Assembly: GCF_008065095.1 (NCBI RefSeq)
Contig: NZ_CP042911.1
Coordinates: 2,490,001-2,522,000 of the forward strand
Source: Gemmata obscuriglobus
GTDB taxonomy: Bacteria; Planctomycetota; Planctomycetia; Gemmatales; Gemmataceae
Direction of reading: 5' to 3'
DNA length: 32,000 nt
The translations under genes and the position numbers were made by a program. Below the pieces are notes generated by a model that made no database searches, was not told where the DNA came from, and saw nothing but the letters and a program-made list of their open reading frames with translations. This document shows positions 126-26,998 of this stretch, in pieces (positions within the stretch are counted from its first letter, which is position 1; each line of letters starts with the position of its first letter).

Positions 126-2612
126 TCAGTTCGCGCCGACGCGGCTTCCTTCGGCGGTCGGTGGGTTCACCGGGAACCGGAGGAACGCGGCGTCGTCGTT
201 CGGGTTCGGGTCCGGTAACCGCGGGGCCTCGATCTTTGTCGCGGCAAGCGCGGTGCCCGGGCCGCACGACGGGTCGCAAAGGTTGTTCGCCGCGGCCAAC
301 CCCGGAACCGCCGCCGGGGCCTTCAACAGTTCGTCGGTCTTCGCGAAGTAGTTTAGCGCGATCTTGTAGGTGTGCCCGGTGCCGAGTTCATTCGCCGGGC
401 CGTCGAAGTGGAACCCGATCGGCATCTGGTAGAACGTGTTGTTGGTGAACGTGCAGCGCATCGGGCGCCCGCCCGGACGGGCGAGCGACACTCCGGCGGC
501 CGTCAGGTGGTAGAACCGGCAGTTCGACACCTCGAAATCGATCGCGGGACCGTCGAACAGCACCCCGGACCGTCCCGGCCCCTCGAACCGACAGTTCCGG
601 ACGGTGACGAACTTGTTGTCCAGGCCGCCCGTGGCGAGGGAGAGCAGGCCGGTCTCGCCCGTCGCGGGGAGGGCGACCCGTAACCGGTCCAGCACCACCG
701 GGCGGTCGCGGTCGCCCGCAACGTTCCACAGGTGGACGCCGGTCTTGACCACGTTCCGCACGGTCACGTTATCGAGTAGCGTGCCGGGGGCGTTCCCGCT
801 CAACTGGACCCCGATCTCGGCTTGGCCCTTTCCGTCGAACTCGAGGTTGCGCAGCCTCAGCCCCTCCGCCCCGCCCGTGTCGAACATCAGCCCGCCTTTC
901 GCGAGGGGCTCGATCACCGCGAGCCGACCGTCCGGCAGGCCGGATTCGATGGTCACGTCCTTGTGCTTGTGCTTGTCGAGCCGAATGGTCGGTTCGCTGA
1001 GCCGGGGCTCGGTGATGACGATGGTGTCGCCCGGGCCGACTTTGGCGATCGCCTCGCGGAGCGACCCGACCGCGTTCTCGCCCCCGCCCTTCGAAACAAT
1101 GACGCGGCGGCTCGTGGGGGGAGGGGGCGACGGGGCGGTCGAGGCCGTCTTGCCGGCGAAGAACGCGAAGTACGCGCCGGCGCCGGCCGCGGCGACCACC
1201 AGGACGGCGGCGACCAGCAGCACAACCGCCTTGACCACGCCGCCGCCGCCCCGACGCGAGGGCGGCGGCGTGCGCGTGCGGACGCGCGACGGGCGTTCCT
1301 CCTCATCCTCGGGCGGTAGCGGCAGCGCCTCCGGGCGCGCCGCGCCCTTGTCTTTGTCACCGGTATCGAGGTTCGCCCACACGGCCGGCGTACCTGCGGC
1401 CGCGGGGGGCGGCGTAGCGCCGGCGGTGACGACCGTTGCGGCGGTCGAGAGCGTGTGCGGGCGGGCGTGCCCGGTGGCGGTCGCGGTTCCGGACACCAGT
1501 GAGGGCGGCCCCGACCCGCGACCGCTGCCGATCACCGCCGGGGACAGCACCGGCATCTCGCGCTCGGCCGGCGGCGGGATCGGCGTCGCCACCCACTCCG
1601 CCAGCGCCGCCGTGACTTCGGCGGGGATCTGGTACCGCCGGGCCGGGTCCTTCGCCATCATCTTCTCGATCACGGCGACCAGCTCGTTGGGCAACTCGGC
1701 CCGGAGCGCCTTGATCGCCCGCGGGACGCGCGTCTGGTGCCAGATCAGCTTCTGCGCGACCGACCCTTCGGGGAACGGCGGGGTGCCGCCGAGCAGGTAG
1801 TAGAACGTCGCCCCCAGCGAGTAGATGTCGGCCCGGATGTCCACCGTGTGGCTGTCCATCGCCTGCTCGGGGGCGAGGTAGTCCGCGGTGCCGAGCACGT
1901 TTTCGTCGTTCTGGCGGGTCAGGTTGTCTTCGGTGTCGTGCGTCAGCCGGGCCAGCCCCAGGTCCAGCAGCTTCACCACGCCCGACCGGTCCACGAGGAT
2001 GTTGCCGGGCTTGACGTCGCGGTGGATCAGCCCCATCTCGTGGGCGTGCTGGAGGCCCACGGCGGCGCCGTAAATGTAGTGGCACGCGCGGGTGATGTCG
2101 AGCGGCCCGAACTTCTTGACGAGGTCCTGCAGGTTCACCCCGTCCACCCACTCCATGACGAGGAAGTGCAGGTTGTCGTCCTGATCGATGTCGTAGGCGC
2201 GGACGACGTTCGGGTGGTCCACCGCGGCGGCGGCCTTCGCCTCCCGGTAGAACCGGTCGAGGCTGGCGCGGTCCTCGGCCCGCGGGAGCGGGAGCACCTT
2301 CACCGCGACCCGGCGGCGCATGAGCTTGTGCTCGCACAGGAACACCGTCCCCATGCCGCCGCTGCCGAGCTTCTCCAGCACCTTGTACTTGCCCAGGTTG
2401 AACCGCTTGTACTTGCCCTGGAGCAGTTGCTCGGCCTGGAAGTACGTGAGCACGCCGTCGCGGACGAGCAGTTGGGCCAGCTTGGTCGGGTCGGCGGGGA
2501 GCCCCCCGGCGTCGCGCAGCTTCTGGACGTGGTTCCGGAGCTTGGCCTCGTCGACGAGGTTGCTCTTCCGGACCAGTTCCAGCATCTCGTCCGCGGTCGT
2601 GGGGGCGGGCAT
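126..2612 (-). CDS. Membrane Ser/Thr protein kinase with an extracytoplasmic right-handed beta-helix-like domain
   Basis: ORF 126..2645, with the start trimmed to ATG 2612 (MPAPTTADEMLELVRK) because the paralog begins MPAPATVPDFLELVRK. Hanks motifs are GSGGMGTVF, VAVK, HRDVKPGNIL, DLGLA and APE. One TM span (VVLLVAAVLVVAAAGAGAYFAFF). The C-terminal ~330 aa show repeated short beta-strand/Asn/Gly periodicity (NVTVRNV, VTVRNCRF, VSNCRFY, TFTNNTFY), typical of parallel beta-helix repeats. Confidence 0.9.
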   Translation of the reverse strand: MPAPTTADEMLELVRKSNLVDEAKLRNHVQKLRDAGGLPADPTKLAQLLVRDGVLTYFQAEQLLQGKYKRFNLGKYKVLEKLGSGGMGTVFLCEHKLMRRRVAVKVLPLPRAEDRASLDRFYREAKAAAAVDHPNVVRAYDIDQDDNLHFLVMEWVDGVNLQDLVKKFGPLDITRACHYIYGAAVGLQHAHEMGLIHRDVKPGNILVDRSGVVKLLDLGLARLTHDTEDNLTRQNDENVLGTADYLAPEQAMDSHTVDIRADIYSLGATFYYLLGGTPPFPEGSVAQKLIWHQTRVPRAIKALRAELPNELVAVIEKMMAKDPARRYQIPAEVTAALAEWVATPIPPPAEREMPVLSPAVIGSGRGSGPPSLVSGTATATGHARPHTLSTAATVVTAGATPPPAAAGTPAVWANLDTGDKDKGAARPEALPLPPEDEEERPSRVRTRTPPPSRRGGGGVVKAVVLLVAAVLVVAAAGAGAYFAFFAGKTASTAPSPPPPTSRRVIVSKGGGENAVGSLREAIAKVGPGDTIVITEPRLSEPTIRLDKHKHKDVTIESGLPDGRLAVIEPLAKGGLMFDTGGAEGLRLRNLEFDGKGQAEIGVQLSGNAPGTLLDNVTVRNVVKTGVHLWNVAGDRDRPVVLDRLRVALPATGETGLLSLATGGLDNKFVTVRNCRFEGPGRSGVLFDGPAIDFEVSNCRFYHLTAAGVSLARPGGRPMRCTFTNNTFYQMPIGFHFDGPANELGTGHTYKIALNYFAKTDELLKAPAAVPGLAAANNLCDPSCGPGTALAATKIEAPRLPDPNPNDDAAFLRFPVNPPTAEGSRVGAN

Positions 2613-2771
2613 GGAGATCTCCGCTGCGCGACGGGCGGGTCGCATGGCGTTCCGGCGCCCGGTGCGAACCGGCGCGCGGCCGGCCGCAAGTATAGTGTAC
2701 GGCAGAACTCAGGGGTTGTGGATTCCCGAGTTCGGAGGCGCACGCCCGGAGGCGTGACGGGGGAGGTGGGG

Positions 2772-4355
2772 TTACACGGGACGCGCGGCGGTGGGCGGGC
2801 GGCCCGAGCCCTTCGACCCCTTGCCGATCTGGTACGCCACAACGAGCCCGCCGACGAACACCCCGGCTAGGAGCAGGGCCAGGGCCACAACCAACCACGT
2901 CCGGCCCTTTCCGGTGACCAAGGGCAGAGGCCCGACGGGCGCCGGGCGCGTCCGGGCCGCACCGGCGCCCGCTTTCGCCCGGGGCGGGATCGGTGTCGTC
3001 GGAGACGCGGCGGCCCGCCCGGTCGAAACCGGGCCGTTGACCGGCGTGTCGGGCCCCGACTTGTACTTGGGGGCGGCCGCGGCCGACGGGGGCGCGATCG
3101 GGAACGCCGCGGCGCTCGTGCCGTCGCCGGGCCGCACCCGGGGGATGTCGATGGAGCTGCCGCCCGTCCGGGCGAACACCCCGCGCCCGGGGCCGAACAG
3201 CGCCCGGGCCAGCGGCAGGTTCGCCCCGGTCCCGGACGTGCTCGGGGGGGCCGCCAGCGCGCGCACCTGCGGGCACAGGACCGGCATCTCGCGCTCCGGC
3301 GGCGGGCCGATCGGCGCCTCCGCCCACTCGGCCAGCGCCTCGGCCACCTCGATCGGCTCCTGGTACCGCTCCGCCGGGTCCTTCGCCATCATCTTCCGCA
3401 GGACCGCGAGGACGCCGGCGGGCACGTCGCTGCGGAACTCCTCGACCGGCCTCGGCTCGCGCGTCTGGTGGGCCACCAGCTTCGCGGCGATGGTGCCGTC
3501 CGGGAACGGGGTCTGGCCGGTGAGCAGGAAGTACAGCGTGCCGCCCAGGGAGTAGATGTCCGCCCGCACGTCCACGACGTTGGTCACCGCCTGCTCCGGC
3601 GCCAGGTAGTCGGCGGTGCCGAGCACGCACTTCTCGTCGTACTTCTCGGTGACGCTGTCCTGCTGCTTGTTGAAGAACCGCGCCAGCCCCATGTCGAGCA
3701 CCTTGATGACGCCGGTGCGGTCGAGGAGCAGGTTCCCGGGCTTGATGTCGCGGTGGACCATGCCGAGTTCGTGCGCGTGCTGCATCCCGACCGCCGCCTG
3801 CGCGACGTAGTGGGCGGCCCGCAGCGGGTCGAACGGCCGCTTGTCCATCGCGTACCGGGCGGCGATCTCCTGGAGGCTGGCCCCGTCCACGTACTCCATG
3901 ACCAGGAAGTGGAGCTTCTCGTACTGGTCGATGTCGTAGGCGCGGACGATGTTCGGGTGGTCCAGCGCCGCAACGGCCCGGGCCTCGCGGTAGAACCGGT
4001 CCAGGTTGGAGGGGTCGTCGAGCTTCTCGACCGGCAGCACCTTGAGCGCCACCAGCCGCCGCATGAGGGTGTGCTCGCACAGGTACACGGCGCCCATGCC
4101 GCCGGCCCCGATCAGCTCGAGGAGCCGGTACTTCGAGCCGATGGTGAACCGCTTGTACCGCCCGAGCTTGAGCTGTTTGGCCTGGAAGAAGGTGAGCAGC
4201 CCGTTGTGGACCAGCACGCCGGCGGCCTGGTCCACGGTCGGGGGGGTGCCGGTGGCGCGGTACCGTCCGAGCAACTCGTCGAGCTTCTTGTCCGGAACCA
4301 GCCCGCCCTTGCGGACCAACTCCAGAAAGTCAGGGACGGTGGCGGGAGCCGGCAT
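2772..4355 (-). CDS. Tail-anchored Ser/Thr protein kinase, paralog of the downstream kinase
   Basis: Motifs GAGGMGAVY, VALK, HRDIKPGNLL, DMGLA, APE. It shares the pre-kinase N-terminal module and the post-kinase EWxxxPIxPPxEREMPVL segment with 126..2612. A single TM (WLVVALALLLAGVFVGGLVVAY) lies near the C-terminus and there is no ectodomain. Confidence 0.9.
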   Translation of the reverse strand: MPAPATVPDFLELVRKGGLVPDKKLDELLGRYRATGTPPTVDQAAGVLVHNGLLTFFQAKQLKLGRYKRFTIGSKYRLLELIGAGGMGAVYLCEHTLMRRLVALKVLPVEKLDDPSNLDRFYREARAVAALDHPNIVRAYDIDQYEKLHFLVMEYVDGASLQEIAARYAMDKRPFDPLRAAHYVAQAAVGMQHAHELGMVHRDIKPGNLLLDRTGVIKVLDMGLARFFNKQQDSVTEKYDEKCVLGTADYLAPEQAVTNVVDVRADIYSLGGTLYFLLTGQTPFPDGTIAAKLVAHQTREPRPVEEFRSDVPAGVLAVLRKMMAKDPAERYQEPIEVAEALAEWAEAPIGPPPEREMPVLCPQVRALAAPPSTSGTGANLPLARALFGPGRGVFARTGGSSIDIPRVRPGDGTSAAAFPIAPPSAAAAPKYKSGPDTPVNGPVSTGRAAASPTTPIPPRAKAGAGAARTRPAPVGPLPLVTGKGRTWLVVALALLLAGVFVGGLVVAYQIGKGSKGSGRPPTAARPV

Positions 4356-4867: not shown

Positions 4868-7021
4868 ATGAGCGCCCGGCGTGCCCTCGATCAGGTCCGC
4901 ACCGTGAAGGCCGTTTGCCCGCACGACTGCCCGGACACCTGCGGGATGGTCGTCACCGTGGACACCGCCACCGGCCGCGCGGTCGAGCTGCGCGGCGACA
5001 AGGAGCACCCGTTCACCCGCGGCGCGCTGTGTCAGAAGGTGTCGAACTACCTCGAACGGGTGTACCACCCGGACCGGCTCCTGCACCCGATGAAGCGCGT
5101 CGGGAAAAAGGGCGAGGGGAAGTTCACGCGCACCTCCTGGGACGAGGCGATCGCGACCATCGCCGCGAAGTTCAAGGAGATCGCGGCGTCCGCAGACGGC
5201 CCGCAAGCGATCCTGCCGTACAGCTACGCCGGCACGATGGGCAAGCTGATGTACGCGAGCCTGGACCGGCGGTTCTTCAACCGGCTCGGGGCCAGCCTGC
5301 TCGACCGCACCATCTGCGCCACCGCCGGCGCGGCCGGGTGCGACGTGACGCTCGGCACCCGGGCGGTGACCGACCCGGAAGCGGCGGTCAACGCCCGGTA
5401 CATCGTGAACTGGGGCTCGAACACGCTGGTCACCAACCTGCACTTCTGGAAGGTGCAACTGGCGGCCCGCAAGCTCGGCGCGAAGATCGTCACCATCGAC
5501 CCGTACCGCTCGCCGACCGCGGCGAAGTCCGACCAGTGGATCGCGGTCCGGCCCGGGACCGACGGGGCGCTCGCGCTCGGGGTGATGCACGTCATCTTCC
5601 GCGAGAACTGGCAGGACGACGACTACCTGAGCCGCTACTGCGTCGGCGCGGCCGAGCTGCGCGAGCGGGTGCTCCGCGAGTACGCCCCCGAGCGGGTGTC
5701 GCACATCACCGGCCTGCCGGTGCCGGAGATCGAGACGTTCGCGCGCGAGTACGCCCGGGCGCGGGAGCTGTTCGGCGGCCCGGCCCTGATCCGGGTGAAC
5801 TACGGGTTGCAGCGGCACGGCGGCGGCGGAATGGCCGTCCGCACCATCGTGTGTCTGCCTGCGCTGACGGGCGACTGGCGCCACCCGGGCGCCGGCGCGC
5901 TGCTCAGCACCAGCAAGGCGTACCCGTTCGACGACCACTACCTGACGCGCCCCGATCTGGTCCCCAAGGGCACGCGCACCATCAACATGGTGAACCTCGC
6001 GGAGGCCCTTCACGGAGAACTACCCGTTCCGTCCGCGGGCGGGGAGAAGTGGCCGCCGGTGCGCGCGCTGTACGTGTACAACTCCAACCCGGCGGCGGTG
6101 AACCCGGACCAGTCGCGGGTGCTCTCGGGGCTGGCCCGCGAGGACCTGTTCACGGTCGTTCACGACCAGTTCCAGACGGACACCGCGGACTACGCCGACA
6201 TCGTGCTGCCCGCGACCACGCAGTTGGAGCACTTCGACATCCACAGCAGCTACGGGCACCTGTACGTTCAGGCCAACAACGCCGCGATCGCCCCGCTGGG
6301 CGAGGCGAAGCCGAACACCGAGGTGTTCCGGCTCCTGGCCCGGGCGATGGGGTTCGAGCCCGAGCTGTTCGAGGAGAGCGACGAGGCGATCGCCGCGCGG
6401 AGCCTGCGCGCGCCGCCGGCCCCGGGCGTGGCGGGGGTGAGTGCCGCACTTGAGGGTATCACCCTCGACGCCACAAAGGCCGGCCCGGTGCGCCTGAACG
6501 TGCCCCGGAACTGGGCGCCGTTCGCGGAGGGCAACTTCCCGACGCCGTCGGGCAAGTGCGAACTGTACTCCGAGCGCGAGGCGCGGGCCGGAAGGGACCC
6601 GCTCCCACACTACGCCCCGCCGCACGAGGACCCGCAAACGAGGCCCGAACTTGCGGCCCGGTACCCGCTGCAACTGCTCACCCCGCCGGCCCCGTCGTTC
6701 CTCAACTCCACGTTCGTGAACGTGGACACGCTGCGCAAGTCGGCCGGGGAGCGCACGCTCGAAATGAACCCCGCCGACGCTGCGAAGCGGGGCATCGTGG
6801 ACGGTCAGATGGTCCGGGTGTTCAACGACCGGGGCCGGTTCCGGGCGCGGGCGGTGGTGGGCGAGAGCGTGAAGCCGGGGGTGGTGGTGTCGCTGGGGCT
6901 GTGGTGGCGCAAGTTCACCGACGACGGCGCGAACTGCAACACGACGACCAGCACCGCGACCACGGACTTCGGCGGCGGTGCCACGTTCTTCGACAACCTG
7001 GTGGAAGTGACAGCGCTCTAA
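4868..7021 (+). CDS. Molybdopterin (Mo-bisPGD, DMSO-reductase superfamily) oxidoreductase
   Basis: N-terminal 4Fe-4S motif CPHDCPDTCGM...GALC. The length is 717 aa. The C-terminal molybdopterin-dinucleotide-binding barrel pattern is present (LEMNPADAAKRGIVDGQMVRVFNDRGRFRARAVV). No adjacent electron-transfer subunit genes. Confidence 0.88.
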   Translation: MSARRALDQVRTVKAVCPHDCPDTCGMVVTVDTATGRAVELRGDKEHPFTRGALCQKVSNYLERVYHPDRLLHPMKRVGKKGEGKFTRTSWDEAIATIAAKFKEIAASADGPQAILPYSYAGTMGKLMYASLDRRFFNRLGASLLDRTICATAGAAGCDVTLGTRAVTDPEAAVNARYIVNWGSNTLVTNLHFWKVQLAARKLGAKIVTIDPYRSPTAAKSDQWIAVRPGTDGALALGVMHVIFRENWQDDDYLSRYCVGAAELRERVLREYAPERVSHITGLPVPEIETFAREYARARELFGGPALIRVNYGLQRHGGGGMAVRTIVCLPALTGDWRHPGAGALLSTSKAYPFDDHYLTRPDLVPKGTRTINMVNLAEALHGELPVPSAGGEKWPPVRALYVYNSNPAAVNPDQSRVLSGLAREDLFTVVHDQFQTDTADYADIVLPATTQLEHFDIHSSYGHLYVQANNAAIAPLGEAKPNTEVFRLLARAMGFEPELFEESDEAIAARSLRAPPAPGVAGVSAALEGITLDATKAGPVRLNVPRNWAPFAEGNFPTPSGKCELYSEREARAGRDPLPHYAPPHEDPQTRPELAARYPLQLLTPPAPSFLNSTFVNVDTLRKSAGERTLEMNPADAAKRGIVDGQMVRVFNDRGRFRARAVVGESVKPGVVVSLGLWWRKFTDDGANCNTTTSTATTDFGGGATFFDNLVEVTAL

Positions 7022-9436: not shown

Positions 9437-10168
9437 CTACAGGCCGGTGGCGTCGATGGCCGCGGTGTAGGTGGTTTCGAGGTCGAGCACGATCACCGGC
9501 CCGCCGCGCAGCCCGAGCGGCACCGCGGGGACCGGCCGGCCGACGGCCGCGGCGTAGGGCCACACTTCGATCTCGTTGGCCCCGGTTTCCCGTCGGTGAA
9601 CGGGGCGGTACCCCGAGACGTAGGTCGGCGTGTCGGACATGAACTGGGCCGGCTGCCCGCCGAGCGCCGCGAGCAGGGCGTTGTGGAGGTTGGCGTGCCG
9701 CTCGGTTACGACATCAATGATGACGACGCCCACACCGCGGCGCAGGTACGCGATGCATTTCGCCACAAATGCCGCACACGCCGCTCCGCGGTCCTTGTTG
9801 CGCGGGCTGACCAGTTCGATAACGCCCACCAACGGCCGCCCGGCCCGTCGCTCGCGGATCTCGACTTCGTGCTCGTCGGGGAAGATGGCCGACAGCGTTA
9901 CCACTGCCCGAGGGGCCGAGGCCAGCGCGGTAAGCGTTCCGCTACTCCCGTTCAATCCGTGAGACGGATCCGGCGGGTCGTCGAGGCGGCACTCGGATAC
10001 GTCCACCTCGACTTGCGGCCCCATTCGCACCTCGCTGACCGCCTGAAACTGATCGCGGGGTAGCGTCGTGTTCAAAAAACGCACGAGCGAAATCGCCCAC
10101 GCTTGGGACATCGTCGTCCACGGGAGCCGGCGCCGGTCGGGCGAATGAAAATGGTCGAGTAACGGCAC
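9437..10168 (-). CDS. DUF4058-family protein (Uma2/PD-(D/E)XK-like fold), paralog A
   Basis: GTG start at 10168 preceded by GGAGGA. Motifs are MPLLDHFH, VIELVSPRNK, GVVIIDVV and the C-terminal VPAVPLGL....LDLETTYTAA. These match my recollection of the DUF4058 pattern (IE-x-LSP-x-NK ... IDLL ... iPL...d..ldL...Y). Confidence 0.7.
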   Translation of the reverse strand: MPLLDHFHSPDRRRLPWTTMSQAWAISLVRFLNTTLPRDQFQAVSEVRMGPQVEVDVSECRLDDPPDPSHGLNGSSGTLTALASAPRAVVTLSAIFPDEHEVEIRERRAGRPLVGVIELVSPRNKDRGAACAAFVAKCIAYLRRGVGVVIIDVVTERHANLHNALLAALGGQPAQFMSDTPTYVSGYRPVHRRETGANEIEVWPYAAAVGRPVPAVPLGLRGGPVIVLDLETTYTAAIDATGL

Positions 10169-10191
10169 GGCGTTCCTCCAATCGCGGCATT

Positions 10192-11352
10192 TTACCCGGC
10201 CGCGAGGGCGCGTTCGAGGTCGGAGCGGAGGTCGGCCACATCCTCAATGCCGACGCTCAGCCGGATGAGGCCGTCGTCCACCCCGCGGGCCTCGCGCACC
10301 TCCTTGGGGATGCTCGCGTGGGTCATCGTGGTCGGGTGGCACACCAGCGACTCCACCCCGCCGAGGCTCTCGGCGAGGCTAAACAGTTTCGTGCGGGTCA
10401 GGAACGACTTGGCGGCCGGGATGCCGCCGCGCAGCTTCAGCGAGATCATCCCACCGAAACCCCGCATCTGCTTCGCGGCGGTGCCCCCGCCCGGGTGCCC
10501 GCGGAGCCCCGGGTAGTACACGTCCGCGACCGCGGGGTGCGACGCGAGCCAGTGTGCCAATTCCATCGCGTTCGCGCAGTGCCGGTCCATGCGTACCGCC
10601 AGCGTCTTCAGCCCGCGGAGCACGAGGTACGAGTCGAACGGCCCCGGCACCCCGCCGGCGGCGTTCTGGTAGAACTTGATCGGGTCGAGCAGTTCCTTCG
10701 CGCCCACCACGCACCCGCCGACCACGTCCGAGTGTCCGCCCAGGTACTTGGTGGTGCTGTGGACCACGAGGTCGGCGCCGAGCTTCAACGGCTGTTGGAG
10801 GTACGGCGACGCGAACGTGTTGTCGACCGCCAGCTTCGCCCCGTGCTTGTGGGCCAGTTCCGCGAGCGCGGCGATGTCGAGGATCTGCAACAGGGGGTTG
10901 GTCGGCGTCTCGATCCAGACCAGCTTCGTCTTCGGGGTGATGAGTTGCTCGAAGCCCGCGGCGGACGAGTCGTCGGTGTATTTGGCGACGAGCCCCCAGG
11001 GCTTGAACACCTTGTCGAGCAGCCGGAACGTCCCGCCGTACAGGTCCGCGGACGCGACCACCTCGTCGCCCGGGCGGAGCAGCGCGCCGAACACCGCGGT
11101 GGTGGCGGCCAGCCCCGACGCGAACGCCAGCCCGCGCTCGCCCTCCTCGAGCGCCGCCAGAGCGGTTTCGAGTGCGGCGCGGGTGGGGTTCCCGCTGCGG
11201 CTGTACTCGTACCCCTTGTGCTGCCCCGGGGCGGCCTGGGTGTAGGTGCTGGTGGCGTAGATCGGCACGACGGTGGCACCGGTCGCGGGGTCCGCGTCCT
11301 GGCCGGCGTGGATCGCCCGGGTGCTGAAGCCGTGCGCGTGGTCGGTTGACAT
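10192..11352 (-). CDS. Cystathionine gamma-lyase/gamma-synthase (Cys/Met-metabolism PLP enzyme)
   Basis: Family pattern YSRSGNPTR, DNTFASPYLQQPL and the PLP-lysine motif HSTTKYLGGHSDVVGG, at 386 aa. I recall close resemblance to actinobacterial MetB/CGL proteins. Confidence 0.9.
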   Translation of the reverse strand: MSTDHAHGFSTRAIHAGQDADPATGATVVPIYATSTYTQAAPGQHKGYEYSRSGNPTRAALETALAALEEGERGLAFASGLAATTAVFGALLRPGDEVVASADLYGGTFRLLDKVFKPWGLVAKYTDDSSAAGFEQLITPKTKLVWIETPTNPLLQILDIAALAELAHKHGAKLAVDNTFASPYLQQPLKLGADLVVHSTTKYLGGHSDVVGGCVVGAKELLDPIKFYQNAAGGVPGPFDSYLVLRGLKTLAVRMDRHCANAMELAHWLASHPAVADVYYPGLRGHPGGGTAAKQMRGFGGMISLKLRGGIPAAKSFLTRTKLFSLAESLGGVESLVCHPTTMTHASIPKEVREARGVDDGLIRLSVGIEDVADLRSDLERALAAG

Positions 11353-11499
11353 GACGTTCCTTTCGTGTGGGCGCTACCTCCAGCCTACCGCGACCGCCTG
11401 CGGTGCGGCCAGTGAGCGGCCCTCGGGTTACTCTCATGTCCTTCAAACGTCTTTCCAGTTAGCATGTCGATCCTGGCGTTTTCGTTTGAAGGGGTTCTC

Positions 11500-13719
11500 A
11501 TGCTCCGGTTCGCTCGTGTACTGCTTCCGACGGCTCTTGCGGTCGCGCTGACGGGTTCGGCCCCTGGGGCTCCGCCCGAAGCTCCGGTGGACCCGGGCTG
11601 GGTCGAAGTCGCGCGCAAGAACGGCCTCACCGCGGCAGAAATCAAACTCTTGCGCGAGCAGAAGTTCCTCGTCACTGGCACCACCCGGCGACAGGTATTC
11701 AGCCCCTACGTCGGCAACGACGTGCCGGTTTTTATCACCAGTGATTCCGTTCTGAGCGCGTACCACGTCCTGCTCGAAGAGTCGATCTACCGTATGGAGC
11801 TGGCGAACAGCCGAAAATTACCCGGCGTGCTGGCCCGGGCCGTCAAAAATCTGGACGAGGCGGCGGCCAGCTTTCCAGGTCGAGCACAACTCGCGAAGCC
11901 GGCGACGAAACGTGCCGCGATCTTCCTCGGGGTCGCGCGGAATCTGCTCGACGACAAAATCCTCCCCAACGACGCCGACGTGAGTGGCGACGTGCAGGCT
12001 GAGGTGAAACGCGTCGTTGCGGGCGTCGGCACTGAGAAGCCCACCTGGCTCGGCCCGCCGGATAGAGGATTCGCGGCGGTGGACTATTCGCGGTTCACGC
12101 CGCGCGGCTTCTACACCCGCACGCCCGCACTTCAGCGACACTTTCGGGCGGTTGCGTGGCTGCAAGCGATACCGTTCCGATTGGACCGCGACGAGGAGCT
12201 CGTGGCGTTCGTGCTGATGCGCCGTGCCTATTTCGGCGCACAGCCGAATGCGCAGATCGATCAAAGCATCTGGGATTCGTTCCGTGCTTTTCTCGGCAAC
12301 CGCGATGATTGGGATCTGTCGGACGTATGGCACAGCCCGAAAGACCTGACGAATGCGGAACTGGACCGGGTGCGGCAGAAGTACGCGGGGAGCGGCGAGA
12401 GCTGGAAGTCGCAAATCAACGACCAACTCCGCGTCGCTCCAACGGAACCGGGCGCCGGGTCCGAACTCGCGTTCCGCTTCCTTTCCGCGTACCGTTTGCC
12501 GGACGCGGTGATGTTCGCACGCACGGTTCCGGGCGTAGAGAAACGCGTCTTACCGTCGGGGCTCGACGTGGCCGCGGCGCTCGGCTCACCGCTCGCGCGC
12601 GACAAGCTGAAGAAAGAGCGGCCACAACTGTTGACGGAAATCGACAAGCAACGCCCGCTGTTTAAGGGCGACAACGTGTACGCGGACTACCTGCGGTGCC
12701 TCGGCACGCTGATGGAACGCACCGAACCCGATGCGCCGGAGTTCATGAAGGGCGAGCCGTGGCGCATCAAGACGGCGCAGACGGCTCTCGCGGGTTGGGC
12801 GCAGATGCGGCACACCTGGGCGCTCCAGGCGAAAAACCACACCGACTACCTTAGCGACACTGAACGGTGCGACGGCTTCATCGAACCTGTGCCGGAGTTC
12901 TACGGCAGCTTAAACAAGCTCGTCGAAGACACGACGGCCATTCTCAAAGAGGCGGGGGCGTTGACGGACGACGAGGGGGCCGTGCTCAAGGAGTTTGCCG
13001 AGGAGTTTCGTGCGGCGGAAGAGCTGGCGAAAAAAGTAGCTGTGCCGAAATTGGATCCTCGCTCGCTCACACAGAAGGAGCGCGATCTCGTGCTCAAGTT
13101 CGCCCCTGAGCTGGACGGGCGATGGGATCTGCCGGAGAAGGAGAGAATAACCGATAACCCTTTGGCCGAATTTACTGATGCTGTTGCCGAGTATCGAAAA
13201 TTCGCCGGGCCGCCCGGCTCACCCGACGGGTACAAATTTCTCGCTTCATACTTGGGGCATCGCGCGGGCCGGAACGCCCGGCACTGGGAACGCCTTGCGA
13301 AGGTGTGCGGCAAACTGGAAACGCTCGCGCACAAGCAACTCCGGCAGGTGCCGTTCACAGCAGACGAAAAGGCGTTCATCCGGGACTACGGCAAATCGCT
13401 CGCCGCGATCATGCTTTACGGCGGCAGCTCTTGGCTCCGGCCGCGCGACGACGCGATGCGGGTGGTCGATGTGTTTTCCGGTAATGGCCGGCACTTGCAC
13501 GTCGGCATCGCCCGCCCGCGAATCATGTGGGTGCTGTACCCCACCAAGAACGGCGAGGTGTTGTGTTCTGGGGCGATCGTGCCGTATGCCGAGTTCACCA
13601 GCGCCAACCGCTTGACGGACGGCGACTGGAAGGCGCTCCTTGATTCGCCACGAAAGCCGGCGGTCCCGGCGTGGGCTCAGCCGGTCGTTCCGCCCGAGCG
13701 CGGAACCGGCAACCGGTAG
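11500..13719 (+). CDS. Secreted DUF3160-like protein
   Basis: ORF 11464..13719, with the start moved to ATG 11500 (MLRFARVLLPTALAVALTGSAPG signal peptide). The ~740-aa size and the FTPRGFYTRT...HFRAVAWLQ segment match what I remember of DUF3160. The family call is from memory only. Confidence 0.55.
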   Translation: MLRFARVLLPTALAVALTGSAPGAPPEAPVDPGWVEVARKNGLTAAEIKLLREQKFLVTGTTRRQVFSPYVGNDVPVFITSDSVLSAYHVLLEESIYRMELANSRKLPGVLARAVKNLDEAAASFPGRAQLAKPATKRAAIFLGVARNLLDDKILPNDADVSGDVQAEVKRVVAGVGTEKPTWLGPPDRGFAAVDYSRFTPRGFYTRTPALQRHFRAVAWLQAIPFRLDRDEELVAFVLMRRAYFGAQPNAQIDQSIWDSFRAFLGNRDDWDLSDVWHSPKDLTNAELDRVRQKYAGSGESWKSQINDQLRVAPTEPGAGSELAFRFLSAYRLPDAVMFARTVPGVEKRVLPSGLDVAAALGSPLARDKLKKERPQLLTEIDKQRPLFKGDNVYADYLRCLGTLMERTEPDAPEFMKGEPWRIKTAQTALAGWAQMRHTWALQAKNHTDYLSDTERCDGFIEPVPEFYGSLNKLVEDTTAILKEAGALTDDEGAVLKEFAEEFRAAEELAKKVAVPKLDPRSLTQKERDLVLKFAPELDGRWDLPEKERITDNPLAEFTDAVAEYRKFAGPPGSPDGYKFLASYLGHRAGRNARHWERLAKVCGKLETLAHKQLRQVPFTADEKAFIRDYGKSLAAIMLYGGSSWLRPRDDAMRVVDVFSGNGRHLHVGIARPRIMWVLYPTKNGEVLCSGAIVPYAEFTSANRLTDGDWKALLDSPRKPAVPAWAQPVVPPERGTGNR

Positions 13720-13729
13720 CGCGTCGATG

Positions 13730-14377
13730 TCAGGTCGGGGTGGCCCCTCGGGCGGCGTCGGCGTAGGTGGATTCGAGGTCGAGCGTCAGGTTCGTTCCTC
13801 CGCGCACGGCTATTGGCACCGTGGGCAGCGCCGCGCCCGCCGGGACGTTGTGGTGCCACAGGCCGAACAGCTCGGCGCCGTTGTGAACCATCGGGTGAAC
13901 CGCGAGCACCGGCGCGTCGGTCCCGCGCGGCCGCTTCGTGATCGGGTACACCCCGGTGAGGCTGTGCAGGTGCGTCGCCCAACTCGCCGCCCCCGGGAGC
14001 GCGTCAACGATCACGACCCCGGCCCCGGCGGACATGAGCCCGGCGGCCCGGACCGCAAACGCCAGCGCCGAATCGGAATCGGCCTTATTGTCCGGGGTCA
14101 CAAGCAGCACGGCCGCCGCGACCTGGCGCCCGTCCCGCCCCACGACGCTGACCCCGACGCGGTCACTGAACCGGGCCGGGGCCATGTTCATGGGCATCGT
14201 TTCGGGCACCGGGCCGGGCAGTTGGACCGCCGCGGCCGCTTGCGCCCGCGTCGCGGCGGCGGGCTCGGCGACGAACGGGCCGCCCGCGAGCTGGGCGTTC
14301 AGGGCGGCGGCGACGGCCGTGGCCCAGCCGGTCAGGAACTCAACCGGGTCGCGCCCGTCGGTGTTCAGGAGTGGCAT
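13730..14377 (-). CDS. Divergent DUF4058-like protein, paralog B
   Basis: Alignable with paralogs A and C: MPLL N-terminus, VLLVTPDNK versus (V/I)ELVSPxNK, GVVIVDAL versus VVIIDVV, and the C-terminal LPTVPIAV....LDLESTYADA. The start lies 15 nt after the stop of paralog C. Confidence 0.6.
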   Translation of the reverse strand: MPLLNTDGRDPVEFLTGWATAVAAALNAQLAGGPFVAEPAAATRAQAAAAVQLPGPVPETMPMNMAPARFSDRVGVSVVGRDGRQVAAAVLLVTPDNKADSDSALAFAVRAAGLMSAGAGVVIVDALPGAASWATHLHSLTGVYPITKRPRGTDAPVLAVHPMVHNGAELFGLWHHNVPAGAALPTVPIAVRGGTNLTLDLESTYADAARGATPT

Positions 14378-14392
14378 GTGTCCTCGTGTGGG

Positions 14393-15136
14393 TTATTCCG
14401 GTATGCGGAGCCGGGCGCAGGCTTCCGCGTAAGTGGCTTCGAGGTCGAGCTTGACGCAGCCGTAGCTCTTGAGTGCGAGCGGCACCGAGGGCAGCGGCTC
14501 GCCGACCTTGAGCGGCCAGGGCCAGAGGTCGATCAGGTCTTCTCGCTTGCGGCTCACCGGGCGGTACGCGGTGACGTAAATCCACGGATCGTCGGCCATC
14601 AAGAATTTGCTGTCGTGCTTGGCGATCCGAACGAGTTCGTTGTGCAGGTTCCAGTGCCGCGATGTCACGATGTCGATGACGACGAGGCCGATGCCCTTCC
14701 CAAGGTAGCTGAGGCACTTGGCGGCGAACTGCTCGCGTTCGCTCTCGTCTTTCTTGTTCGAAGGGCTGACCAACTCGACCACCGCGAGCAGGTTGTAATT
14801 GGCGTTCGCGTCCCGCACTTCGACCTTGACCTCGACCGGAAACGACGCCGGCATACTCAACTTGGTAGCGGGCGGAGCGTACGTTTCGGCCATCACCGCG
14901 ACCGCGGTTCCTATGCCTGATGCGATCTCGGTGTCGCCGGACCCGTTTTCGTCCGAACGCTCGTATTCTGCGACGTCTGCGGACACGGCGGAGCCCAGGT
15001 GCATCGGGGCGTCCGCGACGAACTGCTTCGGCAGCCGACGGTTCAGGTCGTCAGCAATGGCAAACGCCCAGCGCCCGTGAAACGATTCCCAAGGGCGGCG
15101 GCCGAGCGTACCGTGAAAGTGATCGAACAGCGGCAT
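14393..15136 (-). CDS. DUF4058-family protein, paralog C
   Basis: Motifs MPLFDHFH, VVELVSPSNK, GLVVIDIV and LPSVPLAL....LDLEATYAEA. The ATG is preceded by GAGGAGGG and lies 31 nt after the cystathionine beta-synthase stop. It looks more AT-rich than its neighbours by eye. Confidence 0.7.
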   Translation of the reverse strand: MPLFDHFHGTLGRRPWESFHGRWAFAIADDLNRRLPKQFVADAPMHLGSAVSADVAEYERSDENGSGDTEIASGIGTAVAVMAETYAPPATKLSMPASFPVEVKVEVRDANANYNLLAVVELVSPSNKKDESEREQFAAKCLSYLGKGIGLVVIDIVTSRHWNLHNELVRIAKHDSKFLMADDPWIYVTAYRPVSRKREDLIDLWPWPLKVGEPLPSVPLALKSYGCVKLDLEATYAEACARLRIPE

Positions 15137-15167
15137 CGCGTGCCCTCCTCGGCGTGCATTGTACCGC

Positions 15168-16517
15168 TCACTTGCCGCGCCGGTCGCCCCAGTAGTGGAT
15201 CAGGTCGATGCGGGTGACGATGTCGAGGACCGCGTCGTCCTGGGTCGCCAGCACCCCGGTGTAACCCGCCAGGAGCAGCCGGTACGCCTCGTCCAGGTGG
15301 GTGCGCACGTCGAGCGTCGGCAGCGGGCGGGCCATCAGGTCGCCGATGAGCACCTGGCGCGGGTCCTTGCCGTCGTGCAGGATGCGGGCCAGCGACACCT
15401 CCTGCACGCTCCCCACCGGCTTCCCCGCGTCCATCACGGGCAGTTGCGAGATCCCGGTCGCCTCCAGCAGCAGGATGGCGTCCTGCGCGGTCGCGGTCGG
15501 GGCGATGAACACCAGCTTCCGCTCCCCGCGCTTCTTGATTAGGTCGCCGACCGAGTGCGCGGGGGCTTCCGTGAAGGCGAGGTTGTTCGCCTTCAGCCAC
15601 CCGTCGTCGAAGAACTTGCTCAGGTAGTTGCGCCCGGTGTCGCAGCCCACCGCGACCACCAGGTGCCCCGGCCCCAGCCGCCGCGCGTACCGTAGGGCCG
15701 CCGCCACGTTGGTCCCGGTGCTGCCGCCCAGCAGCATCCCCTCGCGGCGGGCCAGCTCGCGGGCCACGTGGAACGACTCGGCGTCCCCCACCCGCACCCA
15801 GTCGTCCACGTACTTGCTCGAGAACGTCTTGGGCACGAAGTCCTCGCCGATCCCCTCCACCTTCCACGGCTTCGGCGAGTCGCCCGACAGCACCGACCCC
15901 TCCGGGTCCGCCCCGACGATCTTCACGTTCGGGTTCATCTGCTTCAGGTACTTGCCCACCCCGCTCACGGTGCCGCCGGTGCCGACCCCGCACACGAACA
16001 CCGTCACCTTCCCCTTCGTCTGCTCCCAGATCTCGGGGCCGGTGGTGCGGTAGTGGGCGTCGGGGTTGGCGGCGTTGGTGAACTGGTTCGGGCGCCACGC
16101 CCCCGGGATCTCGCGGGCCAGCCGGTCCGCCACCCCGTTGTAACTTTCCGGGGAGTCCGGGGCGACGGCGGTGGGGGTGATCACCACCTCCGCGCCGTAG
16201 GCCTTGAGCAGCAGGACCTTCTCGGTGCTCATCTTGTCGGGCAGCACGAAGATGCACCGGTACCCCTTTACCGCCGCGACCATCGCCAGCCCGACCCCGG
16301 TGTTGCCCGCGGTGGCCTCGATGATGGTGCCGCCGGGACGGAGCAGGCCGCGCTGCTCCGCCTCGTCGATCATGGCCAGCGCCACCCGGTCCTTCACGCT
16401 CCCGCCCGGGTTGGCGAATTCGACCTTCACCGCGACCTTCGCCTGAAGGCCCTCGGTGAGCCGGTTGAGTTGCACCAGCGGCGTCCGGCCGACAGTGTCG
16501 AGGATGGATTCGAGCAT
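15168..16517 (-). CDS. cbs: Cystathionine beta-synthase (PLP domain plus C-terminal CBS-domain pair)
   Basis: The N-terminus reads GRTPLV...KVEFANPGGSVKDR (PLP lysine), followed by the GNTG loop and GVGTGGT. The C-terminal ~120 aa contain two CBS motifs (ISQLPVMDAGKPVGSV ... GVLATQDDAVLDIVTRIDL). Confidence 0.9.
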   Translation of the reverse strand: MLESILDTVGRTPLVQLNRLTEGLQAKVAVKVEFANPGGSVKDRVALAMIDEAEQRGLLRPGGTIIEATAGNTGVGLAMVAAVKGYRCIFVLPDKMSTEKVLLLKAYGAEVVITPTAVAPDSPESYNGVADRLAREIPGAWRPNQFTNAANPDAHYRTTGPEIWEQTKGKVTVFVCGVGTGGTVSGVGKYLKQMNPNVKIVGADPEGSVLSGDSPKPWKVEGIGEDFVPKTFSSKYVDDWVRVGDAESFHVARELARREGMLLGGSTGTNVAAALRYARRLGPGHLVVAVGCDTGRNYLSKFFDDGWLKANNLAFTEAPAHSVGDLIKKRGERKLVFIAPTATAQDAILLLEATGISQLPVMDAGKPVGSVQEVSLARILHDGKDPRQVLIGDLMARPLPTLDVRTHLDEAYRLLLAGYTGVLATQDDAVLDIVTRIDLIHYWGDRRGK

Positions 16518-16801
16518 GGTTTGGGACTCCGGACCGGGGACGTTCCGAACACCTCAATTGTCGAGCGCGGCCCCGCGGGGAGACAAGCCCGCGGAACTCG
16601 TTCTTTTTCGCGGTTCCGCAGTTGGCGTGTCGCGCGCGCGTGTCGTACAGTGGGCGAGACGAGACGAAGTCCGTAGTTCCACAGTTTCAAGTTCCGGGCG
16701 CCGTGCGAAACCCGCGGCCGCCCGAACGTTCGCCCGGCCGGTGTCGGCCCCGGAGCTTGAAACGGCCGCGACCGCTCCGCTTCCGCCGACCGTTGTTCAT
16801 T

Positions 16802-17788
16802 ATGAGCCTGCCCAGTCAAAGCGTCGCGCTGCTCCAGGCGGCCCGCGACCTCGTGAAGAGCTTGCCCGCCGACGCGGTGCTGCTGCTCACCGAAACGTCC
16901 CTCGACTGGGGCGAGGTGCGGCGCATGCTGGCCGGGTGCCGGCTGTTCGTCGCGGCCGAGAACCCGGCCCTCACGCGGTCGCTCCGCGACGACCCGGACT
17001 GGACCGTCATCGACCTCGACCCCGAGCCGCTCCCCACCCAGGAGCGGATGAACACCGCGCTGCTCAAGGCGGTCTCGGACGAGCTGCTCCCGCCGGGGTC
17101 GCACGTGGTGGCGATCTACAACGGGATCGCGACCCTCGACGACGCCCCGGAGCCGGTGGACAGCCTGAGCGTGATCCACCTGGGCGAGCACCTGGAGCGG
17201 ATGACCTCGCAGGACCTGCGCATCCTGGGGGACGCGGCCCCGCTCGACGTGCTCCGCGCCGTGGTCGATCTGGCCACCGAGATCGGCCGCGAGGGCCGAG
17301 AGGGGCAACCCATCGGCACCATTCTGGTGGTGGGCGACACGCGCAAGGTGTTGAGCCTGTCGCACTTCCAGAACTTCAACCCGTTCCGCGGGTACTCGCG
17401 GGCCGAGCGCGACGTGCGCAAGAAGGACGTGCGCGAGCAGATCAAGGAGATCGCGAAACTGGACGGCGCGCTCCTCATCGGCCGGGACGGGATCGCGGAA
17501 GCCGCCTGCCTGCACCTGGGCGCGCACGGGGCCAACATGCGGAAGGGGTTCGGCAGCCGCCACACCGCCGCCGCGGGCATCAGCAAGCAGACCAGCGCGG
17601 TGGCGTTCGCGGTGAGCCAGTCGAGCGGCAGCGTGCGGGTGTTCAAAGGGGGCGAGGAGGTGCTGCACATCGAGCCGCTGGCCCGGCCGCACGTGTGGCA
17701 GCCGTTCCGGCTCGAGACCCAGGAGATCGAAGACAAGGACGAAGAGGAAGACGAAATAACCGACGAGAACGGCGACGAGGTGTCGTAG
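16802..17788 (+). CDS. Soluble DAC (DisA_N) domain protein, putative diadenylate cyclase
   Basis: ORF 16622..17788, with the start moved to ATG 16802 (MSLPSQSVALL). The C-terminal half has GTILVVGD, LDGALLIGRDGIAEAAC (DGA motif) and GSRHTAAAGIS (equivalent of GTRHRAA). There is no TM segment. The N-terminal ~190 aa are unassigned, and the tail is acidic (EIEDKDEEEDEITDENGDEVS). Confidence 0.7.
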   Translation: MSLPSQSVALLQAARDLVKSLPADAVLLLTETSLDWGEVRRMLAGCRLFVAAENPALTRSLRDDPDWTVIDLDPEPLPTQERMNTALLKAVSDELLPPGSHVVAIYNGIATLDDAPEPVDSLSVIHLGEHLERMTSQDLRILGDAAPLDVLRAVVDLATEIGREGREGQPIGTILVVGDTRKVLSLSHFQNFNPFRGYSRAERDVRKKDVREQIKEIAKLDGALLIGRDGIAEAACLHLGAHGANMRKGFGSRHTAAAGISKQTSAVAFAVSQSSGSVRVFKGGEEVLHIEPLARPHVWQPFRLETQEIEDKDEEEDEITDENGDEVS

Positions 17789-26849: not shown

Positions 26850-26921
26850 GTTCGGGGGCAGGGCTCGAACCTGCGTCCAACCGGATGAGAGCCGGCCGCT
26901 CTACCACTGAGCTACCCCAAA
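26850..26921 (-). tRNA. tRNA, anticodon CUC by manual folding (nominally Glu)
   Basis: 72-nt cloverleaf. Acceptor stem UUUGGGG/CCCCGAA. D arm GCUC-AGUGGUA-GAGC. Anticodon arm GCCGG-CUCUCAU-CCGGU. Variable loop UGGAC. T arm GCAGG-UUCGAGC-CCUGC. Discriminator C. No encoded CCA. Confidence 0.8.
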
Positions 26922-26926
26922 CGTAA

Positions 26927-26998
26927 ACCTGGGGACAGGGCTCGAACCTGCGTCCAGCCGGTCCAGAGCCGGCCGCTCTACCACTGAGCTACCCCAGG
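26927..26998 (-). tRNA. tRNA, anticodon CUG by manual folding (nominally Gln)
   Basis: 72-nt cloverleaf. Acceptor stem CCUGGGG/CCCCAGG. The D arm is identical to its neighbour. Anticodon arm GCCGG-CUCUGGA-CCGGC. Variable loop UGGAC. T arm GCAGG-UUCGAGC-CCUGU. Discriminator U. It lies 5 nt from the neighbouring tRNA. Confidence 0.8.

Follow-up and report, generated by a model that had tools for sequence, protein, structure and literature searches.

Why should the two enzymes of one short pathway each be trailed by genes of the same obscure family? The question arises from a stretch of 32,000 nt of the planctomycete Gemmata obscuriglobus (contig NZ_CP042911.1, positions 2,490,001 to 2,522,000; hereafter the window). 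Its minus strand carries cbs, encoding cystathionine beta-synthase (CBS), and CGL, encoding a pyridoxal phosphate (PLP) enzyme of the cystathionine gamma-lyase/synthase family, together with three genes of the DUF4058 family (Pfam PF13267), of which C and B lie behind cbs and A lies behind CGL. An interpretation made earlier from the letters alone (the sequence-only reading) judged this placement unlikely to be chance, and offered as explanations a functional link to sulfur amino-acid or PLP metabolism, an addiction or selfish module targeting the 3' ends of operons, or a local paralog expansion. Here, we report that the clade-specific DUF4058/cbs-CGL neighbourhood is real, conserved and previously undescribed, and we weigh the ways in which it may have come about.

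DUF4058 genes recur behind cbs and CGL in the Gemmata group

We fetched 80 cbs loci, one genome per species, searched them by tblastn and with a family hidden Markov model (HMM), and extended the set by exact-protein look-ups. A CBS at least 80% identical to that of the window defines what we call the Gemmata/Frigoriglobus group, or Gemmata group, with loci from Gemmata, Frigoriglobus and related metagenome-assembled genomes (MAGs). A DUF4058 gene lies at most two genes downstream of cbs in 21 of the 22 loci of this group, L020 being the sole exception, and is the very next gene in 18. The types found behind cbs are C together with B (8 loci), B alone (8), C alone (6) and a type that we call 'D' (1), with C directly after cbs in at least 10 genomes. 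Behind CGL, DUF4058 genes are present in 9 of 17 loci as A types, an 'E' type or two tandem copies (L087 and L176); A itself follows CGL in L172, L022 and L087, and the related A2/E types do so in L008, L012, L018 and L176.

A scan of 440 kb of Gemmataceae loci with the family HMM placed all matches in cbs- and CGL-anchored loci within the interval from cbs to CGL plus two genes, while the flanks of these loci gave no match at all. The recurrence of the arrangement in Gemmata, Frigoriglobus and related MAGs, combined with the lack of flank copies, bears out the claim that the placement exceeds chance. Chance clustering in a DUF4058-dense genome is ruled out by the zero flank copies over 440 kb.

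Outside the Gemmata group, no DUF4058 gene was found at the cbs locus, neither in basal Gemmataceae and other Planctomycetes (0 of 7; CBS 62-78% identical) nor in other phyla (0 of 54). CGL directly follows cbs in 26 of the 54 loci from other phyla, and in the basal Gemmataceae L026-L028 cbs adjoins CGL or lies near it. These DUF4058-free loci suggest that the ancestral state was an uninterrupted cbs-CGL operon, which DUF4058 entered in the ancestor of the Gemmata group. The L026 genome combines such an 'empty' cbs-CGL junction with a DUF4058 copy elsewhere (P0239), which suggests that the family is older than its entry into this locus. Two small genes beside P0239 in L090 are not DUF4058 members by HMM.

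The content of the interval from cbs to CGL differs among genomes and can include DUF413, PhyH and DUF6629 genes, a 419-aa protein without Pfam match and an Rv2258c-like S-adenosylmethionine (SAM) methyltransferase. The compact form in L171 reads cbs-DUF413-C-CGL-methyltransferase, with C ending 12 nt before CGL. Gemmata sp. SH-PL17 carries cbs-C-B-DUF6629 and F. tundricola cbs-B-DUF6629, neither with CGL within 10 kb, and in L087 and L176 CGL is followed by two DUF4058 genes with cbs not nearby.

The link to the pathway belongs to the clade and not to the family

We sampled another subfamily, the P0336-like proteins (52-73% mutually identical), at 80 metagenome loci and found cbs or CGL nearby in none of them. 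Their 48 upstream neighbours are spread over 112 Pfam families, the commonest being helicases (4) and WD40 proteins (3). Upstream neighbours are co-oriented in 35 of 48 cases, about 23 of these within 110 nt, and downstream neighbours are convergent in 23 of 49. DUF4058 members tend to close co-directional gene runs, with a modest asymmetry.

L177 carries PhyH-DUF4058-DUF4058 in the same syntenic frame (DacZ ... Mo-oxidoreductase ... kinase), without cbs and CGL. P0120 has a similar PhyH-DUF4058 context, and P0198, an A2-type relative that is 52% identical to A, is solitary and lies elsewhere in its genome. Judging from the 0 of 80 in the other subfamily, its heterogeneous neighbours, the L177 cassette without the enzymes and the dispensable copies described below, a family-wide link to sulfur amino-acid or PLP metabolism is not borne out. 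The link to cbs and CGL is specific to the Gemmata-group clade and to this locus, and not to the DUF4058 family.

Two co-directional units in the window

Sequence and open reading frame (ORF) list agree on the minus-strand order cbs-C-B and, apart from it, CGL-A, with gaps of exactly 31, 15 and 23 nt (Table 1). Shine-Dalgarno sites were read before all three DUF4058 genes, namely GGAGGA before A, GAGGA before B and GAGGAGGG before C. The gaps are indeed too small for a separate promoter or terminator; no terminator- or promoter-like site was detected in any of the three junctions, and the total from a scan of the locus was not above that of shuffled sequence. Gap sizes, common strand, Shine-Dalgarno sites and the lack of terminator-like sites in the gaps suggest that cbs-C-B and CGL-A are each co-transcribed. 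An Rfam scan found no riboswitch or other RNA near the cbs/CGL/DUF4058 locus, and a repeat search returned the paralogs' own coding similarity alone, with no terminal repeats and no insertion footprints. Frame analysis of the GC content at third codon positions (GC3) supported cbs, C, B, the DUF3160 gene, CGL and A as real genes, and Pfam, homology and family-HMM searches found no further DUF4058 gene within the window.

The cbs product matches the Pfam PALP family (276 bits) and carries CBS domains, and it lies barely over the equivalog cut-off of TIGR01137 for cystathionine beta-synthase (512.3 versus 510.25 bits). The top NCBIfam equivalog of CGL is NF005871, named 'cystathionine gamma-synthase' (558 versus 513); the lyase role implied by our label is presumed from its pairing with cbs, not from the family name. 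The locus has the make-up of a reverse-transsulfuration operon, with a CBS equivalog and a Cys_Met_Meta_PP enzyme, putatively a lyase, in a co-directional unit.

Three paralogs, one of them degenerate

Of the three genes assigned to DUF4058 by the sequence-only reading, A (31.9 bits) and C (50.4 bits) exceed the PF13267 cut-off of 25 bits, whereas B, which has no Pfam match at E<=0.01, is not recognised by the model and yet is homologous. BLASTP aligns B with C at E=8e-19 and 29% identity, and an HMM built from 68 distant family representatives alone matches B at E=1e-27 (88 bits). Judging from these matches, B is a divergent DUF4058 member that the Pfam model overlooks. All 11 B orthologs from related genomes lack the ADVxE motif and the Glu of ELVSP; they retain NK, VVIVD and LDLEATY and share a conserved stretch of their own, GAGVVIVDALPGPxSWATHLHSL. 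The database holds 68 B-type proteins, none with a precomputed Pfam domain, and their named sources are Gemmata, Frigoriglobus and unclassified Planctomycetes. By its motifs, the B type is a conserved but degenerate subfamily and, provided that DUF4058 proteins are enzymes, B is probably without catalytic activity.

PF13267 is matched by 44 of 45 aligned homologs; C has more than 120 orthologs (53-93% identity) and A more than 120 homologs (44-94% identity), and A and C are 40% identical to each other. Near-invariant across the family are an N-terminal MPLxDH and residues D55, E120, S123, N126, K127, D128, R133, K139 and D154, a set suggestive of an enzyme or of a metal site. Types A, C, D and E retain the family-invariant Asp, Glu and Lys residues, and B is without the D and E. 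DUF4058 as a whole comprises 2253 clusters at 50% identity (E<=1e-3). Our literature search found no published information on DUF4058 or PF13267, and one on Gemmata and cystathionine gave nothing useful.

Purifying selection and a mosaic allele of C

The CBS protein of the window is 100% identical in amino acids to those of Gemmata algarum JC673 and JC717, and the other window genes differ from both, which points to a third strain of that species or of one very near to it. Between the window and JC673, the ratio of nonsynonymous to synonymous divergence (dN/dS) amounts to 0.15 in C, 0.125 in B and 0.17 in A, compared with 0.15 in CGL, and DUF4058 genes in other genome pairs give 0.19-0.25. These values are well below 1, and A, B and C thus encode proteins under purifying selection.

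C departs from its surroundings in synonymous divergence. Against JC673, dS is 0.059 for cbs, 0.061 for B and 0.27 for C. Against JC717, CBS is 100%, B 98% and C 71.5% identical, with dS of 0.059 for cbs and 0.079 for B and, for C, dN of 0.196 and dS of 0.56. The excess is limited to positions 14740-15110, from within about 30 nt of the start codon to near the ELVSP motif. Here, 8-28 mismatches to JC717 fall in every 30 nt, compared with 0-3 in the flanking cbs, junction and B, and the breakpoints are sharp. In other genome pairs, the dS of DUF4058 genes is only about double the cbs value, so that the G. algarum pattern looks like allele replacement by recombination inside C. This mosaic suggests intragenic recombination or allele replacement in C.

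In JC717, a 1-nt deletion splits A into ORFs of 112 and 130 aa (L175, 14323-15053), which reflects either a recent pseudogene or an assembly or sequencing error. C, B or A is missing from many related genomes; no single copy is indispensable, and at least one strain (JC717) does without A.

Predicted structure and the nuclease question

AlphaFold models of C (predicted local distance difference test, pLDDT, 86; predicted template-modelling score, pTM, 0.80) and A (pLDDT 84) agree with each other. Both begin with an N-terminal helix and a strand, continue after a disordered insert of about 30-45 residues with two strands, a helix and a further strand, and end in a four-stranded C-terminal sheet and a last helix. 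This predicted order would be compatible with a PD-(D/E)XK core; order alone does not test the fold.

Searches with the models did not sustain the PD-(D/E)XK nuclease fold that the sequence-only reading had assigned. Foldseek gave no PDB match at E<=0.001 for A or C, all template-modelling (TM) scores normalised to the query were below 0.25, and nothing fell below E=0.02 when both models were compared with the PDB and the C model with BFVD. The Uma2-like PDB entries 6okh and 9y1l were present in the searched library and were not recovered for either model. Sequence searches of the PDB with two DUF4058 family profiles gave no match even at E<=10. C scored 12.4 bits (E=0.11) against Uma2 (PF05685), below the gathering threshold of 27 bits, and of 45 homologs, 10 gave Uma2 matches below the threshold, the best at E=0.014 and each of them covering residues ~116-154. 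Alignment by hhalign to a single Uma2 sequence and to a 3-sequence Uma2 alignment, a very thin template profile, was negative. Furthermore, NCBIfam, PADLOC (E<=1) and PHROGs scans of A, B and C gave no matches, and no DUF4058 relatives were found among IMG/VR viral contigs. We treat the nuclease fold as a hypothesis.

How the cassette may have come about

Among the three explanations offered initially, the best fit is a local paralog expansion, with the genes as passengers in the operon. In the account that we favour, and to which we give about an even chance, the DUF4058 genes are a resident, lineage-specific paralog cassette that inserted long ago into the cbs-CGL operon, gave rise to its paralogs on site and is carried along as a co-transcribed passenger whose selected function is not the chemistry of the pathway. 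The common ancestor of the Gemmata/Frigoriglobus group would have acquired the cassette within its then uninterrupted cbs-CGL (homocysteine-to-cysteine) operon. Diversification in place would then have produced at least five paralog lineages, with C and B behind cbs, A and 'E' behind CGL and 'D' between, and different copies would have been lost in different genomes. The genes would ride the cbs and CGL transcripts as passengers and be translated from their own Shine-Dalgarno sites. Their role would most likely be unrelated to sulfur amino-acid chemistry and resemble that of the cyanobacterial Uma2-type 'solo toxin'-like cassettes, and the turnover of C alleles may hint at a conflict-type function. 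The gene anatomy, the homology, the conservation, the purifying selection and the mosaic allele are seen in the data themselves, and co-transcription, the single origin and this nuclease or conflict function are our inference from them.

The family tree is consistent with such a history. Types A-E are distinct old lineages that cluster in one half of a rough family tree, and tandem pairs recur, as in C-B and in the two copies behind CGL in L087 and L176. A recent tandem duplication is ruled out by the identities of 40% between A and C and 29% between B and C. Of the notion that three genes docked separately behind the enzymes of one pathway, the association is real, but the three events are better read as one locus history.

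Several points weigh against this account. The attachment to each enzyme outlasts the separation of cbs and CGL (L173 and L174, which have cbs-C/B and no CGL within 10 kb; L087 and L176), and nearly every genome of the clade holds at least one copy, both of which would likewise be expected of a real functional partner. The tree behind the putative single origin is distance-based and carries no support values, and A stands nearer to some members not linked to CGL, such as P0198 (52%), than to C (40%). Moreover, co-transcription is deduced from gap sizes, and the nuclease analogy is weak, with no PD-(D/E)XK structure by Foldseek, a negative hhalign comparison and blank PADLOC and PHROGs scans.

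The observations on attachment and retention lead to an alternative that we consider unlikely, namely that DUF4058 proteins are accessory or regulatory parts of the methionine-to-cysteine pathway, which might sense or regulate its flux or act on the mRNA of the operon by processing it; C and A would be the active members and B a non-catalytic partner. Both enzymes have copies behind them, which remain in place where the two genes are unlinked, at least one follows cbs in 21 of 22 genomes, and purifying selection on A, B and C is as strong as that on CGL. Other genes of the interval fit the pathway, such as the SAM-dependent methyltransferase after CGL in L011, L018 and L171. The latter recalls yrrT, a methyltransferase gene of the mccAB (Met-to-Cys) operon of Bacillus subtilis. 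However, a pathway component would not be expected to lack any association outside the clade (0 of 7 basal Gemmataceae and other Planctomycetes, 0 of 54 other phyla) and in another subfamily (0 of 80), nor to occur without cbs or CGL, as in L177. Each paralog is singly dispensable, with A frameshifted in JC717, and hypervariable alleles such as those of C are unusual for a metabolic accessory protein.

The patchy presence among related genomes and the C allele replaced at sharp breakpoints between unchanged flanks could instead speak for actively selfish nuclease genes, homing-endonuclease-like or of the addiction type, which would target or exploit conserved genes at their 3' ends and rely on recombination to spread or persist. 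P0336-like members often end a co-directional gene run, and the GC3 of A, C and the DUF3160 gene is below that of cbs and CGL. We nonetheless hold this to be quite unlikely: the flanks carry no terminal repeats or mobile-element signatures, viral contigs hold no copies, defence and phage families gave no matches, and the orthologs are mostly inherited vertically and keep their positions from genus to genus. The recombined tract is internal to C and its flanks are not co-converted, 8 loci have B and no C while 6 have C and no B, and the nuclease activity is itself putative. A type II toxin-antitoxin pair of C and B was rejected, as there is no obligate pairing (of 22 loci, 8 carry both genes, 8 only B and 6 only C).

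Distinctly improbable in our estimate is a third possibility, in which DUF4058 is a structurally new family that turned into a dedicated, clade-specific component of the homocysteine-to-cysteine operon. It could, for example, form an active/inactive pair (C/B, and A) that links sulfur amino-acid status with a transaction on nucleic acids or small molecules; the diversification of C would then mirror a conflict on top of this role. The structural novelty is suggested by two confident models without PDB analogue.

Finally, a historical accident, in which genes without selected function merely hitch-hike through tight spacing and slowly decay, could draw on the 15-31-nt gaps that offer few neutral breakpoints, on the DacZ-cbs adjacency that is conserved still deeper without known functional reason, and on frequent copy loss and the A frameshift in JC717, but is very unlikely given frames intact across genera at dN/dS of 0.12-0.25, the strong conservation of B's own motifs over at least 11 genomes and the family-invariant residues kept by A, C, D and E.

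Gene coordinates and neighbouring genes

The features of the locus are collected in Table 1. The GC3 of the DUF3160 gene is 0.77, the lowest among the window's likely genes, and that of cbs and CGL is 0.94-0.97. JC673 and JC717 retain only the last ~50 DUF3160 codons, beside a gene for a ~700-aa WD40-repeat protein on the opposite strand, which suggests that the spot between B and CGL was rearranged recently.

Table 1 Features of the cbs-CGL locus in the window (window coordinates).
Feature	Position	Strand	Remarks
DacZ-type diadenylate cyclase, divergent from cbs	16622-17788	+	DacZ_P sensor and DAC domains; upstream edge of the syntenic locus
cbs, cystathionine beta-synthase	15168-16517	-	PALP domain and two CBS domains; first gene of the unit
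cbs-to-C junction, 31 nt	15137-15167	-	Shine-Dalgarno GAGGAGGG at 15150-15143, 6 nt before the ATG of C
DUF4058-C, 247 aa	14393-15136	-	PF13267, 50.4 bits; conserved D54, E57, E121, N127, K128 and D155 retained
Hypervariable 5' two-thirds of DUF4058-C	14740-15110	-	Apparent recombinant/mosaic allele segment between conspecific strains
C-to-B junction, 15 nt	14378-14392	-	GAGGA at 14385-14381, 3 nt before the ATG of B
DUF4058-B, 215 aa	13730-14377	-	Divergent paralog without ADVxE and without the E of ELVSP (LLVTP instead)
DUF3160 gene, convergent with B	11464-13719	+	PF11369, 286 bits; strain-specific filler between the locus halves, outside the conserved unit
CGL, cystathionine gamma-lyase/synthase family PLP enzyme	10192-11352	-	PF01053 (Cys_Met_Meta_PP), 510 bits
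CGL-to-A junction, 23 nt	10169-10191	-	GGAGGA at 10179-10174, 5 nt before the GTG of A
DUF4058-A, 243 aa, GTG start	9437-10168	-	PF13267, 31.9 bits; conserved residues of the family retained

Several further genes recur between or behind the enzymes in other genomes. A conserved protein of ~419 aa follows DUF4058-B in several Gemmata genomes (L008, 2337-3596; L010, 12074-13327; L031, 8425-9684; also L009 and L012); it has no Pfam or PHROGs match and does not occur in the window. A SAM-dependent methyltransferase gene stands after CGL or CGL-A in L011 (14682-15950), L018 (6777-7904) and L171 (10388-11095), and the L011 and L018 proteins are Rv2258c-like with a winged helix-turn-helix domain. 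Genes for DUF413, a PhyH dioxygenase and DUF6629 likewise recur in the interval.

On the other side of cbs, DacZ is its neighbour in nearly all Gemmataceae loci, and this adjacency is conserved deeper than the DUF4058 insertion. The divergent region between the two genes measures 104 nt (16518-16621). CBS domains are known receptors of cyclic di-AMP (c-di-AMP) in other proteins, and a regulatory link from c-di-AMP to CBS is conceivable.

Further out, the window contains two tandem Ser/Thr protein kinase genes and a molybdopterin oxidoreductase gene at 126-4355 (-) and 4868-7021 (+), and two adjacent tRNA genes at 26850-26998 (-; Rfam RF00005, 62 and 65 bits). Both the oxidoreductase gene and a kinase gene are conserved in L087, L171, L172, L175 and L177, where they mark the synteny downstream of the CGL-A end.

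Contigs with the exact C protein of the window and the same gene order occur in at least 20 public sequencing runs (L001-L006; Logan SRR5887367, SRR5887628, SRR5887509, SRR9494610 and others). The window strain is thus well represented in public read sets, which might include usable expression data.

Significance

With culturable strains at hand (G. algarum, Gemmata sp. SH-PL17 and F. tundricola), the locus offers an experimental handle on DUF4058. It supplies natural variants at one place, with B degenerate, A frameshifted (JC717) and C hypervariable, probably on a defined housekeeping transcript. It also exposes an annotation gap, as the Pfam model overlooks the whole B-type subfamily with its 68 'hypothetical' proteins. 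Lastly, it counsels caution with guilt by association: a tight neighbourhood with two enzymes of a pathway can stem from one old insertion and local duplication, and is alone no evidence of a shared function.

Comparison with known systems

Bacterial reverse-transsulfuration operons with cbs-CGL pairs include mccA-mccB of Bacillus subtilis and Rv1077-Rv1079 of Mycobacterium tuberculosis. The Gemmata-group locus shares with these the order of cbs and then a Cys_Met_Meta_PP gene on one strand and, in some Gemmataceae, a SAM-dependent methyltransferase in the cluster. In contrast, the two genes abut directly in 26 of the 54 loci from other phyla, and DUF4058 genes (along with DUF413, PhyH and the 419-aa protein) stand between or behind the enzymes solely in the Gemmata group.

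Free-standing homing endonuclease genes, such as seg and mob of T4-like phages, sit between conserved genes. The DUF4058 genes resemble them as small putative nuclease genes between conserved genes, with no promoter of their own, patchy presence and recombinant alleles. They differ in having no phage or mobile context, in positions that are fixed over long times and in flanks that are not co-converted, and their nuclease activity and target site are putative.

The closest parallel in our favoured account is Uma2 (DUF820, COG4636; PF05685), a family of predicted PD-(D/E)XK endonucleases that occur in paralog cassettes, mainly in cyanobacteria, and rarely with an antitoxin (PMC2701414, PMC3424549). 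Paralogous Uma2 cassettes have been described as likely solo toxins (PMC2701414). Both families consist of small single-domain proteins with many divergent paralogs, often in tandem cassettes, and they share a local motif, ELVSPxNK...K..Y...G.G.VVID in DUF4058 and E(I/V)LSxx...D...K..Y...GV.EYW in Uma2. However, DUF4058 is a separate Pfam family, as C reaches ~12 bits against the Uma2 threshold of 27, and it is set apart by the conserved MPLxDHFH at its N terminus, by a long insert that is disordered and by an additional beta-sheet at the C terminus. In contrast to the Uma2 cassettes, moreover, the DUF4058 cassette resides inside a housekeeping metabolic operon and is inherited vertically across genera.

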